A stretch of DNA of 64,000 nucleotides, taken from Escherichia phage vB_EcoM-pEK20. Below are positions 14,211 through 38,892 of this stretch, one piece after another. A model generated the notes under the pieces. It saw nothing but the letters and a program-made list of their open reading frames with translations. It was not told where the DNA came from and searched no databases. The DNA lies in the sequence record MZ868638.1. One strand, written 5' to 3'. The position numbers were made by a program, and so were the translations under genes. The first letter of the stretch is position 1. Each line of letters starts with the position of its first letter.

Positions 14211-14554
14211 CCAAAATGTTGGCTTTAATAGTTGGCTTGGTTTCATTTAACGCTCTTGCTAATACTACATATACTGATGTAACGGAGTATACAAACAGAA
14301 CGGCGTCTGATTATTGTGGTAAAAGTCAAGAGTGTAAAGTAGATTTTTCACAAAAATTGTTATATGCGTATAAAGACGGAGAAAAAGACGGGGCGTCTAG
14401 TAGGTTCAAGGCGTCTACTTTAATTAAAAGATACTATAAAAAATGGCAAATATTAGAATGCTCGGTGGCGGAACCTAAAGATAAGGCGGCATGCAATTCT
14501 ATGGTGGACCGTCTAGTTGACTCTTATACTAGAGGACTTGTAGCAAGTGATTAA
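14207..14554 (+). CDS. small secreted/periplasmic protein
   Basis: signal-peptide-like N-terminus MTKMLALIVGLVSFNALA. Confidence 0.45.
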   Translation: MTKMLALIVGLVSFNALANTTYTDVTEYTNRTASDYCGKSQECKVDFSQKLLYAYKDGEKDGASSRFKASTLIKRYYKKWQILECSVAEPKDKAACNSMVDRLVDSYTRGLVASD

Positions 14555-15014
14555 AAACTATATCAAGGGCGATATTGTCGCCCTGTTTTCTAAAGGTAAT
14601 AATATTGCTCATGGGTGCAATTGTTTTCATACAATGGGCGCCGGTGTAGCAGGTCAATTGGCAAAGGCTTATCCAAAAATTTTAGAAGCCGATAAACTTC
14701 AAACCGAATTCGGAGATGAGTCTAAACTCGGGACTTATTCGGTTTATGAAAAATATTTTAAGACCCATAAAGCTTATTGCTTTAATCTTTATACACAGTT
14801 TGAGCCGGGACCTAATTTTGAGTACTATGCTTTAATGAATTGTATAATAGAATTAAATGAATTCGGAAAAAATAAGATAACAAAGCCTGTAATTTATATG
14901 CCAAGAATTGGTGCAGGTATAGGTGGTGGAAACTGGGATATCATTGAAGAAATTCTTGATACATATTCCACTAAACTAGAAATTGTGATTGTTGATTGGG
15001 AACCATTATTATGA
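14547..15014 (+). CDS. macro-domain protein (ADP-ribose binding/hydrolase family)
   Basis: HGCNCFHTMGAGVAGQL and PRIGAGIGGGNW resemble macro-domain glycine-rich motifs; GTG start, no in-frame ATG near N-terminus. Confidence 0.55.
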   Translation: MIKNYIKGDIVALFSKGNNIAHGCNCFHTMGAGVAGQLAKAYPKILEADKLQTEFGDESKLGTYSVYEKYFKTHKAYCFNLYTQFEPGPNFEYYALMNCIIELNEFGKNKITKPVIYMPRIGAGIGGGNWDIIEEILDTYSTKLEIVIVDWEPLL

Positions 15015-15223
15015 ATGTGCATTACCCACATCCGTTTGATCCTAAAAATAAAGCAGTAATTATTCGTCAATGGGAACGCATTTGTCGTACTAAATGTCCA
15101 ATTAATAGTCCACATGATGTAGATAAAGACTACATCGGAACATTCGTTGAATATACCTTTATTGATAAGAAAGGTCGTAAACAACATGTAGAAGAATATT
15201 GCTTAAAGGTTACATGGTTATGA
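15011..15223 (+). CDS. hypothetical small protein
   Basis: ATG at M6 of listed ORF. Confidence 0.4.
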   Translation: MNVHYPHPFDPKNKAVIIRQWERICRTKCPINSPHDVDKDYIGTFVEYTFIDKKGRKQHVEEYCLKVTWL

Positions 15224-15405
15224 GTTTAAGTAAAGAACAAAAAGACATACTATTTTCTCTTATTCACGAAGTTATGGATAAAAATAGTGAATTGGAAAAA
15301 GTTTGCGATGAATGCGGTCCTTTTAATACCGACGAATACGAAGAACTGTGTAAAGATTTCGACGATAAAGAACAAGAACTTATTGATTATATAAATTCCT
15401 TATGA
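15214..15405 (+). CDS. hypothetical small protein
   Basis: ATG with aaagg 6 nt upstream. Confidence 0.4.
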   Translation: MVMSLSKEQKDILFSLIHEVMDKNSELEKVCDECGPFNTDEYEELCKDFDDKEQELIDYINSL

Positions 15406-15599
15406 TTACTCGCGAACAAAAGAATGAAATACGATTTTTAATCAGCGAAATTATTAGTTTAGAACGAGATTTATCTTTTGAATTGGCTTCGGATTATGGA
15501 GATGCTGAAACATACTACGAATTAGTAAAATCTATCGATAAAGCTGAAAATGATTTAGAAACATATTTAGAAAATTTAACTAAGGACTCTTATGGCTAG
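15402..15599 (+). CDS. hypothetical small acidic protein
   Basis: ATG overlapping upstream stop. Confidence 0.4.
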   Translation: MITREQKNEIRFLISEIISLERDLSFELASDYGDAETYYELVKSIDKAENDLETYLENLTKDSYG

Positions 15600-16173
15600 T
15601 TTAATTTTTACATATGCCGCTATGAACGCTGGTAAGTCTGCTTCATTACTTACTGCCGCTCATAACTATAAAGAACGTGGCATGGGTGTATTAGTTCTTA
15701 AACCGGCTATTGATACTCGCGATTCAAAAGGTGAAATAGTCTCTCGTATTGGTATTCGTCAGGACGCCAATATAATTACAAAAGACATGGATATCTTTGA
15801 ATTCTATAAATGGGCTGCAGCACAAAAGGATATTCATTGTGTATTTGTTGACGAAGCTCAATTCTTAACTACTGAAAAGGTGTATCAACTTAGTCGTATT
15901 GTTGACGTATACAATGTGCCGGTAATGGCATATGGACTACGAACAGATTTTAAAGGTAATCTATTTGAAGGTTCTCAAGCATTAATGGCTATTGCCGATA
16001 AGCTTGTTGAACTTAAAGGTGTCTGTCATTGTGGTAAAAAGACCACAATGGTAGCTAGAGTCACGGAAGACGGACTTCCAATTATAGATGGCAGTCAAAT
16101 TGAAATTGGTGATACTGATAGATATGTGTCATTATGCCGGAAGCATTGGAATGATTTGACAGGGTTGTTATAA
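15592..16173 (+). CDS. tk: thymidine kinase
   Basis: P-loop AAMNAGKS, FVDEAQF, C-terminal CxCG zinc ribbon; matches T4 Tk. Confidence 0.95.
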   Translation: MASLIFTYAAMNAGKSASLLTAAHNYKERGMGVLVLKPAIDTRDSKGEIVSRIGIRQDANIITKDMDIFEFYKWAAAQKDIHCVFVDEAQFLTTEKVYQLSRIVDVYNVPVMAYGLRTDFKGNLFEGSQALMAIADKLVELKGVCHCGKKTTMVARVTEDGLPIIDGSQIEIGDTDRYVSLCRKHWNDLTGLL

Positions 16174-35042: not shown

Positions 35043-36062
35043 ATGAAAATTTTAAATTTAGGTGATTGGCATTTAGGTGTTAAAGCCGATGATGAGTGGG
35101 TTCAATCCATTCAGTTGGATGGAATTAAGCAGGCGATAGAATATTCTAAGAAAAATGGAATTACTACATGGATTCAATACGGCGATATTTTTGATGTGCG
35201 AAAAGCAATCACGCATAAAACTATGGAGTTCGCACGTGAAATAGTTCAAATGCTTGATGATGCTGGTATTACCCTACATACTGTTGTAGGAAACCATGAT
35301 ATGCACTTTAAAAATACTTTAACTCCAAACGCTTCTACTGAGCTTTTAGCTAAATATCCTAATGTTAAAGTATATGATAAGCCTACTACAGTAGATTTTG
35401 ACGGATGTTTGATTGATTTAATTCCTTGGATGTGCGAAGAAAATACTGGTGAAATTCTTGAACATATCAAAACTTCATCTGCTTCTTTTTGTGTTGGGCA
35501 CTGGGAACTGAATGGTTTTTATTTCTATAAAGGAATGAAGTCTCATGGGCTTGAACCTGATTTTTTAAAGACCTATAAACAAGTCTGGTCCGGCCACTTC
35601 CACACAATCTCTGAAGCTGCTAACGTCAAATATATTGGGACACCATGGACCCTTACTGCAGGTGATGAAAACGACCCTCGAGGATTCTGGGTATTTGACA
35701 CCGATGTTGAACGTATGGAATTTATTCCTAATGAAACAACATGGCATCGACGAATCACTTATCCGTTTAAAGGCAAAATCAATTATTCTGATTATACTAA
35801 TCTAGCCGTACGTGTTATAGTATCAGAAATTGATTCAGAGTTGACTAAGTTTGAATCTGAACTTGAAAAAGTAGTTCACTCTCTTCGTATGGTTTCTAAA
35901 GTTGATAACAGTGTTGAATCTGATGACGACCAGGAAATCGAGATTAAATCACTTCAAGATATCATTAAAGAATATATTGACGCGATTCCAGATATCTCAG
36001 ACGAAGACAGAGAAGCGCTGGTCAAATATTCCAACGAACTTTATATTGAGGCAACACAATGA
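35043..36062 (+). CDS. 47: recombination endonuclease subunit gp47 (Mre11-like)
   Basis: 339 aa; phosphoesterase motifs DWHLG, GDIFD, GNHD; matches T4 gp47. Confidence 0.95.
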   Translation: MKILNLGDWHLGVKADDEWVQSIQLDGIKQAIEYSKKNGITTWIQYGDIFDVRKAITHKTMEFAREIVQMLDDAGITLHTVVGNHDMHFKNTLTPNASTELLAKYPNVKVYDKPTTVDFDGCLIDLIPWMCEENTGEILEHIKTSSASFCVGHWELNGFYFYKGMKSHGLEPDFLKTYKQVWSGHFHTISEAANVKYIGTPWTLTAGDENDPRGFWVFDTDVERMEFIPNETTWHRRITYPFKGKINYSDYTNLAVRVIVSEIDSELTKFESELEKVVHSLRMVSKVDNSVESDDDQEIEIKSLQDIIKEYIDAIPDISDEDREALVKYSNELYIEATQ

Positions 36063-36316
36063 CTTTAGATGAATTTAACAATGCTGGACTCAGGCTTGAA
36101 GTTGAAATGGACGTTAAAGATGATGATGGATTCGAGAACACTATCAAGTATTGGATTGAGCCATTACGTGTTGAAGGCAATGAAGTTAAAGCAGTTCATG
36201 TCTGCACCGACTGGGCTATTGAATTTAGCTTTAATATAATGGACAACGATACTCCTGGCTCTATTCTTAAAATGGCTGAAGCGTGTATTGAGGACGCGTA
36301 TAATGACGAAGACTGA
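36059..36316 (+). CDS. hypothetical acidic protein
   Basis: ATG overlapping 47 stop. Confidence 0.45.
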   Translation: MTLDEFNNAGLRLEVEMDVKDDDGFENTIKYWIEPLRVEGNEVKAVHVCTDWAIEFSFNIMDNDTPGSILKMAEACIEDAYNDED

Positions 36317-37163
36317 CTATGAAACTCAAATTTATAAAATTCTTAAAACCTCCTTCCCTTCGTGGGAAGGACTTGATGAGTATTTAAACTTTATAAAAAC
36401 TAATTCCACTAATAAAGTAAAAGGACTGACTCAGGTTCACCATATACTACCAAAATCTATTTTTCCAGATTTTAAAACATGTAAATGGAACTTGTGTCAT
36501 TTAAGTCATTATAACCATTTTATTGCACATAGCATTTTGGCAAAAACTGGCAACCACAAGATGATTAACGCGCTTCAAAGAATGTATACCGGGCGATTTA
36601 ATTTAAATTGTACAACGCATGAACTAAATAATATAGCCGAGGCGTATTCTTTAGAATTCGAAAATGTTTGTAAAGTTAATTCTATAAAAATGACATTATA
36701 CTATTCCAATCAGGATAATAGAATTAAGATTAGTCAAGCTTTAAAAGCATGGTTTAAAAATCCGGAAAATTTAAAGAAACATAGAATTATGACAAGTTCA
36801 AAGGAATTTAAAGAAACCGTCTCTATTATGACCCAAAAGTGGTTTAGTGACCCTATTAATAAACAAAAACATTTGGATGCTTGTCGTAAAATATCTAAAA
36901 CAACCGAATATAGAGAATCATTATCGGCTGGAGTTTCACGCAGTTGGAAAAATCCTAAAGTTAGAGACACTCATTTGAAATCTAGAAGAAAAGGATATCA
37001 TTGGGAAAATTTTGATATGCTTTACGTTGAATGGGTTAAAATGAACAAACCTAAATATGTAACTTTTTCTAAAAATTTAGTCAATTTAGGATATCCTATA
37101 CAAAGTTCTTTACAGGCTTTAGTTTCTGAATTCATGAGGAAAAATTTAAGTGAAAACATTTAA
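36303..37163 (+). CDS. HNH homing endonuclease with NUMOD-like repeats
   Basis: HNH core VHHILPKS...NLCHLSHYNHFIAH; three KxWxNPxxxKxH-type repeats; ATG at M6 of listed TTG ORF. Confidence 0.6.
   Translation: MTKTDYETQIYKILKTSFPSWEGLDEYLNFIKTNSTNKVKGLTQVHHILPKSIFPDFKTCKWNLCHLSHYNHFIAHSILAKTGNHKMINALQRMYTGRFNLNCTTHELNNIAEAYSLEFENVCKVNSIKMTLYYSNQDNRIKISQALKAWFKNPENLKKHRIMTSSKEFKETVSIMTQKWFSDPINKQKHLDACRKISKTTEYRESLSAGVSRSWKNPKVRDTHLKSRRKGYHWENFDMLYVEWVKMNKPKYVTFSKNLVNLGYPIQSSLQALVSEFMRKNLSENI
36303..37163 (+). mobile_element. free-standing homing endonuclease gene between genes 47 and 46
   Basis: HNH endonuclease ORF in a slot that holds only small ORFs in T4. Confidence 0.5.
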
Positions 37164-38838
37164 ATTAAATCGTGTTCGTTATAAAAATATAATGTCTGTT
37201 GGGCAAAATTTTATCGATATCCAATTAGATAAAGTCCAAAAGACCTTAATCACAGGTAAAAATGGTGGTGGTAAATCTACGATGTTAGAAGCCATTACTT
37301 TCGGACTTTTCGGTAAACCATTTCGTGATGTTAAGAAAGGGCAAATCATTAATAGCACGAACAAGAAAGAGCTCTTAGTTGAGCTTTGGATGGAATTCGA
37401 TGGTAAAAAATACTTCATTAAACGTGGCCAAAAACCCAATATTTTCGAAATCTCCGTTGACGGTGTTCGTCTTGATGAATCTGCCAGCAGTCGTGACTTC
37501 CAAGAAGAATTTGAACGCAGCATCGGAATGTCATACGCGTCTTTTAAACAAATCGTTGTGCTTGGGACGGCAGGGTATACCCCTTTCATGGCTCTTAGCA
37601 CCCCTGCTCGCAGAAAACTTGTCGAAGACCTTTTAGAAGTCGGCACACTCGCTGAAATGGATAAAATCAATAAGTCTCAAGTTCGAGAACTTAATTCCCA
37701 GGGACAAGTTCTCGATGCCAAGAAAGATGGTATTATCCAACAAATTAAGATTTATAACGAGAATATCGAACGTCAAAAGAAATTATCTGGTGATAATGTA
37801 GCGCGTCTACAGAATATGTATGACGACCTAGCCAAAGAAGCTCGTTCATTAAAAGCAGAAATCGAAGAAGCTAATGAGCGACTACTTAATATCGTTCTTG
37901 ATGAAGACCCTACTGAGGCATTCAACAAGATAGGACAAGAAGCATTCTTGATTAAATCTAAAATCGACTCATATAACAAAGTTATTAAGATGTATCATGA
38001 CGGTGGCACATGTCCTACTTGTGCATCACAGTTGCACCAGGGTGATCCTATTGTCTCTAAGATTACCGATAAGCTTCACGAATGTAATCACTCATTCGAA
38101 CAACTTACATGTCACAGAGATAATCTGAGTGTCTTAGTGGACGAATATAGAGCTAATGTTAAGACTAAACAGGACCTTGCATCTGATATTCGTACCAAGA
38201 AACAAGCAATGATTGCCACTATTGATAAAGCTAAGAAAGTTAAAGCTGCAATAGAACAAGCCTCAGCGGAATTTATCGACCATGCCGATGAGATAGCTTT
38301 GCTTCAAAAAGAACTTGATAAAATCATTAAAACAAAATCGGATATCGTTCTTGAAAAATACCATCGTGGTATTATCACAGATATGTTAAAAGATTCTGGT
38401 ATTAAAGGTGCTATCATTAAAAAATATGTGCCTCTGTTCAACAAACAGATTAACCATTATCTTAAAATCATGGAAGCTGATTACGTGTTTTCTATTGACG
38501 AAGAATTCAATGAATCTATAAAATCACGTGGTCGTGAAGAGTTCAGTTATGCTTCATTTAGTCAAGGTGAAAAGGCACGTATCGATATCGCATTGTTGTT
38601 TACATGGCGAGATATTGCTGAAAAGGTCTCTGGTGTTAGAATCAATACATTAATTATGGACGAAGTCATGGATTCCGCGACTGATTCTGAAGGTATTAAA
38701 GCTATTTCAACAATTCTTAACTCTCTAACCGATGCAAACGTGTTTATAATTAGTCACAGAGACCATGACCCACAAGCTTATGGACAACATCTTCAAATGA
38801 GCAAAGTTGGACGATTTACTGTAATGACTGTTTCATAA
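37150..38838 (+). CDS. 46: recombination endonuclease subunit gp46 (Rad50/SbcC-like)
   Basis: Walker A GKNGGGKST, coiled-coil middle, CPTC zinc hook, signature FSQGEKARI; GTG start overlapping HEG end. Confidence 0.95.
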   Translation: MKTFKLNRVRYKNIMSVGQNFIDIQLDKVQKTLITGKNGGGKSTMLEAITFGLFGKPFRDVKKGQIINSTNKKELLVELWMEFDGKKYFIKRGQKPNIFEISVDGVRLDESASSRDFQEEFERSIGMSYASFKQIVVLGTAGYTPFMALSTPARRKLVEDLLEVGTLAEMDKINKSQVRELNSQGQVLDAKKDGIIQQIKIYNENIERQKKLSGDNVARLQNMYDDLAKEARSLKAEIEEANERLLNIVLDEDPTEAFNKIGQEAFLIKSKIDSYNKVIKMYHDGGTCPTCASQLHQGDPIVSKITDKLHECNHSFEQLTCHRDNLSVLVDEYRANVKTKQDLASDIRTKKQAMIATIDKAKKVKAAIEQASAEFIDHADEIALLQKELDKIIKTKSDIVLEKYHRGIITDMLKDSGIKGAIIKKYVPLFNKQINHYLKIMEADYVFSIDEEFNESIKSRGREEFSYASFSQGEKARIDIALLFTWRDIAEKVSGVRINTLIMDEVMDSATDSEGIKAISTILNSLTDANVFIISHRDHDPQAYGQHLQMSKVGRFTVMTVS

Positions 38839-38839
38839 A

Positions 38840-38864
38840 CGCTTTAACACGATGTGGTTATAAT
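38840..38864 (+). promoter_or_regulatory. middle promoter (MotA-box type)
   Basis: cGCTTTA 38840-38846, 12-nt spacer, tataat 38859-38864; inverted repeat gatgtggt/accacatc. Confidence 0.55.
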
Positions 38865-38892
38865 GACCACATCAAATTAAATGGAGAACAAC

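Follow-up and report, generated by a model that had tools for sequence, protein, structure and literature searches.

A likely Mob-type homing endonuclease gene replaces the body of gene 46.1 in Escherichia phage vB_EcoM-pEK20 and is linked to a two-allele polymorphism at the start of gene 46

We analysed a 64,000-nucleotide (nt) stretch of the genome of Escherichia phage vB_EcoM-pEK20 (MZ868638.1; hereafter the window), which belongs to Mosigvirus, the RB69-like T4-type phages. A 286-amino-acid (aa) open reading frame (ORF) at positions 36303-37163 on the plus strand, hereafter the HNH ORF, lies directly upstream of gene 46. We consider it likely to be a free-standing Mob-type homing endonuclease gene (HEG) that couples an HNH nuclease to helical DNA-binding repeats, with the majority form of the gene 46 5' end as its target and an alternative sequence patch at the same place as the source of its carrier's immunity. 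What is shown here is the anatomy of the locus, its distribution, its mosaic structure and a dimorphism that recurs across genera; nuclease activity, target identity and immunity are inferred.

The dimorphism resides in the first codons of gene 46. Throughout, R denotes the gene 46 5' version found with the HNH ORF and S the majority version of HEG-less phages. In the window, the R patch spans gene 46 nt 34-66 (37183-37215, plus strand) and differs from the majority S allele by 12 substitutions in 33 base pairs (bp), which comprise three amino-acid changes (Q12K, G19Q and P21F) and six synonymous ones; the next ~230 nt are 97-98% identical. We predict that this patch represents an immune or co-converted homing target. 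It is linked to the HNH ORF at all five HEG-carrying Mosigvirus loci aligned base by base, and the nine HEG-carrying records all match the 101-nt R stretch at 100%. Across Mosigvirus, nine records combine the HEG with R and none combines it with S, five HEG-less phages carry R (G2285, WFL6982, WFK, ESCO47 and PTE-Eco05) and ~140 HEG-less records carry S.

The same association recurs beyond Mosigvirus. Every HEG-carrying genome examined encodes an R-type gp46 N-terminus, Y(K/S)NIMSVGQ..., and the S-type N-terminus (...YQNIMSVGG(N/S)PID...) is found in the majority of HEG-less genomes of each genus, as YQNIMSVGGNPID in ST0 and wV7 and as YQNIMSVGGSPID in S16. Identity between R and S alleles over gene 46 nt 1-66 versus nt 67-300 is 79% versus 97% in Mosigvirus, 71-80% versus 98-99% in Tequatrovirus and 61% versus 97% in Gelderlandvirus, and in all three genera the divergence ends at nt 63-66. 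A linked sequence difference at a nearby conserved site, as looked for around homing genes, is thus present and replicated in three genera. The first-pass annotation of this DNA had named, as fatal to its own reading, the same ORF in all relatives with no target-site signature; what was found is a patchy ORF accompanied by a linked R/S polymorphism.

Gelderlandvirus phage Melville supplies direct evidence that a short piece of gene 46 travelled between genera. Its nt 1-66 are 82% identical to T6 versus 61% to its congener S16, and its nt 10-33 (L004:3821-3844) match T4/T6 at every wobble position (21/21) with 11 differences from S16. Between the Melville and T6 endonucleases, however, identity is only 43%, which suggests separate histories for the endonuclease gene and its flank.

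Partial R tracts in HEG-less phages are nested, extending over nt 46-66 in CGG4-1, nt 34-105 in ESCO47, WFL6982 and PTE-Eco05, and nt 7-105 in G2285. All include nt 46-66, the R patch core, which corresponds to 37195-37215 (plus strand) of the window. The HEG-carrying phage AV112 has a shorter right-hand tract that ends between nt 66 and nt 96. A stronger formulation, in which the R core would be identical at all wobble sites across genera, was softened, as the G18 codon varies and the S-type phage wV7 shares AAT ATA.

The HNH ORF itself is patchily distributed. Among roughly 155 Mosigvirus records, nine carry it (eight distinct phages), always at the same site and with at least 99% protein identity, and about 145 lack it. 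The cassette is 99.4-99.6% identical among carriers, although it stands on two gene 47 haplotypes (one 99%, the other 86% identical to the window) and distal gene 46 falls to 93% identity among the same phages. Every copy retains an intact reading frame and conserved catalytic residues. Patchy presence combined with near-identical copies in diverged backgrounds is the comparative pattern of a homing gene; together with the adjoining target-site-like polymorphism, it supports the initial proposal of a free-standing HNH homing endonuclease in the 47-46 operon. As a separate observation, the gene 47 haplotypes (window 35043-36062; loci L001-L017) are ~14% apart while gene 46.2 and gene 46 stay 97-99% identical, which suggests a mosaic breakpoint close to the 47/46.2 junction, independent of whether the endonuclease is present.

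Homologues immediately precede gene 46 in other genomes too, with 42-45% identity in Tequatrovirus (T6 and about 80 records), 56% in Gelderlandvirus (Melville, SEA1 and CF-SP2) and 54% on a metagenomic contig. Their left junctions differ, lying after 46.1 in T6, inside 46.1 in the window and directly after gene 47 in Melville. The T6 ORF is intact (284 aa); the T2 homologue (L005:2932-3784) is frameshifted into two ORFs of 205 and 85 aa and looks like a decaying copy, as expected for the life cycle of a HEG.

Comparison with HEG-less relatives defines the anatomy of the element. Approximately 140 Mosigvirus records have a 79-aa gene 46.1 (Pfam DUF5487, E = 4.7e-13), which is not an endonuclease gene, where the window has the HNH ORF. 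Against ST0, PNJ-6, HX01 and ATK47 the BLAST breakpoints are sharp (query positions 1282 and 2109), with similarity running up to window position 36324 and resuming from 37151. The 826-bp HNH-only segment between them (36325-37150, plus strand) stands in place of the 215-bp body of 46.1; its left edge lies 22 nt inside the HNH ORF and its right edge coincides with the gene 46 start codon. As defined by the left BLAST edge and the alignments, the retained 5' end of 46.1, consisting of the start and six further codons (MTKTDYE; 36303-36324, plus strand), now forms the first codons of the HNH ORF. The element has thus kept the ribosome-binding site, the ATG and the first seven codons of 46.1; the GAGGA Shine-Dalgarno sequence (36290-36294, plus strand), 8 nt 5' of the ATG, consists of bases identical to those preceding 46.1 in HEG-less phages. 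The HNH ORF is accordingly a replacement of the 46.1 body and not a simple insertion. Of the mobile insertion between 47 and 46 first proposed, the mobility stands and the plain insertion does not.

At its other end, the element supplies the start region of gene 46. As first annotated, gp46 begins at a GTG (37150) inside the last codons of the HNH ORF, whose 3' end also provides the GAGGA Shine-Dalgarno sequence (37136-37140, plus strand) 9 nt before it. The GTG is real, since the N-terminal sequence, VKTFKLNRV..., lines up residue by residue with those of gp46 relatives that use ATG and since T4 gene 46 is annotated with a 'gtg start'. In HEG-less relatives the sequence upstream of gene 46 is wholly different, 46.1 and 46 overlap at an ATGA, and an ATG occupies the homologous start position. 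The insertion itself does not account for the GTG, which is also the native start of T4 gene 46. In phage 172859UKE1 (L011:2554-2596) and Klebsiella phage KP179 (L023:402-444), gene 46 is annotated 14 codons shorter; judging from the alignment with other gp46 N-termini, these records probably missed the GTG start. Annotators should be aware that a gene 46 GTG start behind the HNH ORF is easily mis-called, as in UKE1.

Expression signals specific to the element were sought with negative results. Sigma-70-like matches in or before the HNH ORF occurred only at chance level, the T4 late-promoter sequence TATAAATA was not found within 35-39 kb of the window, and RNA folding at the ORF start, where sequestration of the ribosome-binding site was sought, revealed no structure (z = +1.2). 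With no promoter signal above chance, the HNH ORF appears to be a cassette that lacks its own promoter and is transcribed as part of the 47 operon; T4 mobE and others have been described as promoterless (PMC2790892; PMC2988022).

Sequence comparison establishes that the encoded protein belongs to the Mob-type family (T4 MobA-E), an assignment that rests on detectable homology to a T4 Mob protein. Searches of phage genomes with tblastn matched T4 mobD over residues 43-277 (29% identity, E = 5e-13), and the first ~90 residues matched ORFs annotated as MobE or Mob-like (37% and E = 1e-6 for MobE). PHROGs matches were phrog_655 'homing endonuclease' (E = 3.8e-31) and phrog_12434 'HNH endonuclease' (E = 2.7e-12). 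An exhaustive phmmer search returned 772 representative relatives at E ≤ 1e-3, just one of them below 1e-30. In a 109-sequence alignment, Y27, H46, H47, I48, L49, P50, N63, H72 and H76 are invariant, giving the family pattern HHILP...N..L...H...H. Jablonska et al. (2017) placed T4 MobA-E in His-Me finger group 1, of the PF01844 type, and not in group 2 with I-HmuI and HNH_3 (PMC5714182).

The AlphaFold2 model has a predicted local distance difference test score of 91.2 over the full length and 89.6 in the N-terminal domain. It places strands at residues 43-47 and 64-68 followed by a helix at 69-82, a beta-beta-alpha topology carrying the invariant residues. The predicted beta-beta-alpha-metal (HNH) catalytic core therefore comprises residues 43-82 (VHHILPKS...WNLCHLSHYNHFIAH; 36429-36548, plus strand), with invariant H46, H47, N63, H72 and H76, in agreement with the HNH core recognised at first reading. 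An hhalign comparison aligned it in register with the HNH motif of McrA (P = 2.8e-4, probability 41%) and weakly with colicin E9, both references having been entered by hand; three of the 109 homologues hit PF01844, also weakly (best E = 0.0046). Foldseek comparison of the full model with the PDB returned only matches at E > 1, some of HNH type among them (teneurin, GVE2 HNH and retron HNH). The motif and the predicted topology thus support HNH chemistry, but comparison of folds gave no confirmation of it.

Beyond the core, the model consists entirely of helices. Three helix-pair units (residues 137-164, 167-198 and 201-228; 36711-36986, plus strand) each carry the motif ...S......W(F/K)xNP....H... 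and are putative DNA-binding modules, NUMOD3-like at best. A hidden Markov model (HMM) built from repeat 2 of four homologues recovered repeat 1 at 19.5 bits, versus a maximum of 11.2 in 2000 shuffled sequences; repeat 3 was not recovered statistically and is seen by eye and in the model only. Pfam NUMOD3 is present in 35 of the 109 homologues, some of which then show '..F.NPE' as in the repeats, so the repeats may be diverged NUMOD3 (PF07460) derivatives. An ad hoc NUMOD3 HMM from 18 homologue segments scored the window protein no better than shuffled sequences, and 'NUMOD-like' is to be read as resemblance and not as demonstrated membership. Of the three NUMOD-like repeats first described, three W-x-N-P...H helix pairs remain, the first two significantly alike; the third is statistically unsupported and a NUMOD profile match is lacking. 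The protein ends in a conserved helical domain (residues 232-285; 36996-37157, plus strand), identified from a four-protein alignment and the model helices and common to all four gene-46-associated homologues compared.

Taken as a homing endonuclease, the protein would act during mixed infection on the genome of a HEG-less partner phage, recognising its S-type sequence at approximately gene 46 nt 34-66 and nicking or cutting it near nt 46-66. Processing of the damage would use the HEG-carrying genome as repair template and copy the R patch into the recipient; a tract reaching ~50-70 bp further left would install the HEG in place of 46.1, and the R patch would protect the carrier from its own enzyme. 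On the simplest reading, these steps would follow the paradigm of intronless homing in T-even phages (PMC2988022). We advance more tentatively the wider proposal that one Mob-type lineage is dedicated to the gene 46 5' end and has moved among at least three Tevenvirinae genera with a ~66-nt coding patch, creating a trans-genus two-allele polymorphism (S: YQNIMSVGG-PID; R: Y(K/S)NIMSVGQ...).

Several points weigh against this reading. Fewer than 70 bp separate the HEG from the R patch, and simple linkage by descent could explain why they occur together; ordinary crossing-over can likewise produce partial R tracts. For characterized free-standing T4 HEGs, cleavage usually takes place hundreds of bp away from the gene (PMC2988022), compared with 35-70 bp for the candidate site. 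R-like sequence in HEG-less T4 and in the outgroup Klebsiella phage KP179 implies that R is not HEG-specific and may be the older state. Profile searches were also unsupportive, with no match to the HNH ORF for HNH, HNH_3, HNH_5 or NUMOD1/3/4 in Pfam at E ≤ 1, for HNH or NUMOD in NCBIfam, or for anything relevant in PDB sequence searches with the single protein or the 109-sequence profile. HNH_3 (PF13392) and zf-His_Me_endon likewise matched neither the window protein nor its 109 homologues; the Pfam HNH_3/NUMOD search by which the first-pass annotation proposed to check its assignment was therefore negative, and the family is of T4 Mob type instead.

The R-like sequences of KP179 and T4, which suggest that R is older and S derived, give some weight to a reversed polarity, in which the same Mob-type HEG would recognise the HEG-less R locus (the 46.1/46 junction plus R, as in G2285 or T4), its insertion would disrupt the site, and S would be a resistant escape allele. 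The HEG is found in the R context only, S is the majority allele in the T-even phages of E. coli, as expected of a successful resistant allele, and T6, with the HEG, differs from the HEG-less R phage T4 at nt 63-64 and codons 1-3. We nevertheless regard this polarity as unlikely. Three HEG lineages with three left junctions make a common junction-spanning site improbable, and Melville nt 10-33, being T4/T6-like and not Gelderlandvirus-like, point to a 5' end imported with the HEG and not to a native insertion context. Moreover, the wobble positions of the S allele vary from one of the three genera to another, as is expected of native sequence, and characterized free-standing T4 HEGs leave their own sites undisrupted (PMC2988022).

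The embedding of the gene 46 GAGGA and GTG in the 3' end of the HNH ORF, on which gene 46 depends, raises a second possibility, that of a stranded or domesticated HEG, immobile and kept for the translation initiation region of gene 46 or for harm to co-infecting competitors (marker exclusion). Its rarity (nine records) would fit, and interference competition by a phage HEG is documented (PMC11620839). This account is quite unlikely, given an intact ORF with conserved catalytic residues in every copy, at least 99.4% identity on two diverged gene 47 backgrounds, and HEG-less R-allele phages, which show that loss of the ORF is compatible with an ATG start of gene 46. Finally, homologues at the same locus in three genera might suggest that the gene belonged to the 47-46 operon from the start and was lost by most relatives, with no acquisition, but this is very improbable, as the homologues are just 42-56% identical beside flanking genes of 72-79% at the DNA level, left junctions vary among genera, T4 and most genomes of each genus have 46.1 instead, the HNH ORF is a compositional outlier, and near-identical copies span diverged backgrounds.

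The assignment of the HNH ORF draws on the PHROG 655 match, T4 MobD homology and the AlphaFold model, and the ORF itself is real, opening at ATG 36303 and closing with TAA at 37161-37163; a mechanical ORF list offers TTG 36288 as an alternative start. The ORF is free-standing, a separate frame between 46.2 and 46 with intact flanks collinear with T4, and it overlaps each of its two neighbours by 14 nt, so that both the coordinates and the overlaps first reported are correct. Its guanine-plus-cytosine (GC) content is 29.8%, against a window mean of 37.0% (standard deviation 1.9), within the lowest 0.3% of 861-bp windows.

Gene order in the window is 55 ... 47, 46.2, HNH ORF, 46, 45.2, rpbA, 45, 44. 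Many Mosigvirus (RB69/JS09-like) genomes match the 47-46 stretch at 92-98.5% identity, the top match being PNJ-9 (97.5%). All the neighbours discussed are on the plus strand. Gene 47 (35043-36062), the first gene of the operon shown, encodes a Mre11/SbcD-like nuclease subunit (Pfam Metallophos, E = 2.7e-8; annotated as gp47 in relatives) and is followed by an 85-aa homologue of gene 46.2 (36059-36316; Pfam PF25721 T4_Y03C, E = 5.6e-44; PHROG 2192). Gene 46 (37150-38838) encodes a Rad50/SbcC-like ATPase subunit with Pfam AAA_23, SMC_N and Rad50_zn_hook domains, and its N-terminus aligns with gp46 of T4, T6, ST0 and Melville. F2 (NC_054913.1) is filed under Tequatrovirus, yet its 47-46 region is 95.8% identical to the Mosigvirus window.

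A second Mob-like HNH ORF (238 aa, minus strand) lies directly downstream of gene 46 in several Mosigvirus phages, namely in ST0 (L001:4682-5398), where the RefSeq record leaves it unannotated, in F2 (L002:5239-5955), and in G2285 and ESCO47 (L014 and L015, from 3885). It shows HHIIP...NL..L...EH..AH, a NUMOD3-like FTAETRKKMSES segment and Cys-rich ribbons, and it is absent from the window, where 38839-38880 is a short spacer. Gene 46 is thus flanked on both sides by optional endonuclease genes. Elsewhere in the window, the second-lowest GC stretch (14700-15700, 31.4%) holds a 155-aa ORF (14547-15014) and is itself located upstream of a thymidine-kinase-like ORF (15592-16173); regular-expression searches of 14700-15700 found no Mob-HNH or GIY-YIG motif.

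Several GenBank records already label this ORF 'MobD-like homing endonuclease', 'mobile endonuclease' or 'HNH endonuclease', and the ORF is an ordinary member of its class, one that phage T4 made familiar long ago. The literature searched contained no paper on a HEG at the 46.1/46 locus, although such absence is not proof; what is new is the exact replacement anatomy and a specific target-site prediction backed in three genera. Free-standing HNH mob genes are familiar, yet among T4 homing endonucleases they are the least well understood: no target has been assigned to MobB, MobC or MobD, and how a nick brings about gene conversion awaits an explanation (PMC2988022). If the wider proposal of a lineage dedicated to gene 46 holds, the nested tracts would pin cleavage to ~20 bp (gene 46 nt 46-66) only ~50 bp from the HEG, an unusually compact and tractable system for studying how a nicking Mob enzyme triggers homing. 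The locus yields a concrete, testable prediction, a ~20-33-bp site in S-type gene 46, with natural resistant alleles and partial-conversion recombinants in three genera. On our reading, it would also mean that the N-terminus of an essential recombination protein, the Rad50-like gp46, is being rewritten by a selfish element.

Among known systems, the closest by sequence and the nearest named T4 relative is MobD of the nrdC.11/mobD.1 locus (29% identity, residues 43-277), which likewise has an N-terminal HNH region and a helical C-terminal region; the GenBank records of F2 and Melville call the gene-46 family 'MobD-like'. MobD differs in its locus and in the low identity, and its activity and target are unknown (table in PMC2988022). 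Functionally, the closest system is MobE of the nrdA/nrdB locus, a free-standing HNH endonuclease whose gene is promoterless within an operon, which nicks the 5' region of the neighbouring essential gene, nrdB, in HEG-less T2 and is inherited with co-conversion (PMC2790892; PMC2988022); the record of phage SQ17 labels the HNH ORF 'MobE mobile endonuclease'. Detectable similarity to MobE is, however, limited to ~90 N-terminal residues, its target is nrdB and not gene 46, and nicking is demonstrated for MobE but only assumed for the HNH ORF. Among Mob proteins, strand-specific nicking with super-Mendelian inheritance has been shown only for MobA and MobE (PMC2988022).

In its genetics, the locus is closest to the 'intronless homing' of SegF and SegG, in which a conserved gene has a HEG as its neighbour, sequence differences make the carrier immune and nearby markers are co-converted (PMC2988022). 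These enzymes belong to the GIY-YIG family and cleave hundreds of bp from their gene, in contrast to the candidate site 35-70 bp from the HNH ORF. SegH/Hef offer a precedent for a HEG replacing a resident gene (mobC, mobE) in T4-related phages (Sandegren et al. 2005, as related in PMC2988022), with the difference that there a HEG replaces a HEG, whereas the HNH ORF replaces the non-endonuclease gene 46.1. I-HmuI (PDB 1U3E; Pfam HNH_3 plus an I-HmuI NUMOD-like domain) is intron-encoded, belongs to His-Me finger group 2 as opposed to group 1 for the Mob proteins (PMC5714182), and has the HNH_3 domain that the window protein and its 109 homologues do not match. It nonetheless has the layout predicted for the HNH ORF product, an HNH nuclease joined to extended helical modules for DNA binding, and it drives homing by nicking (PMC2988022; PMC5714182).

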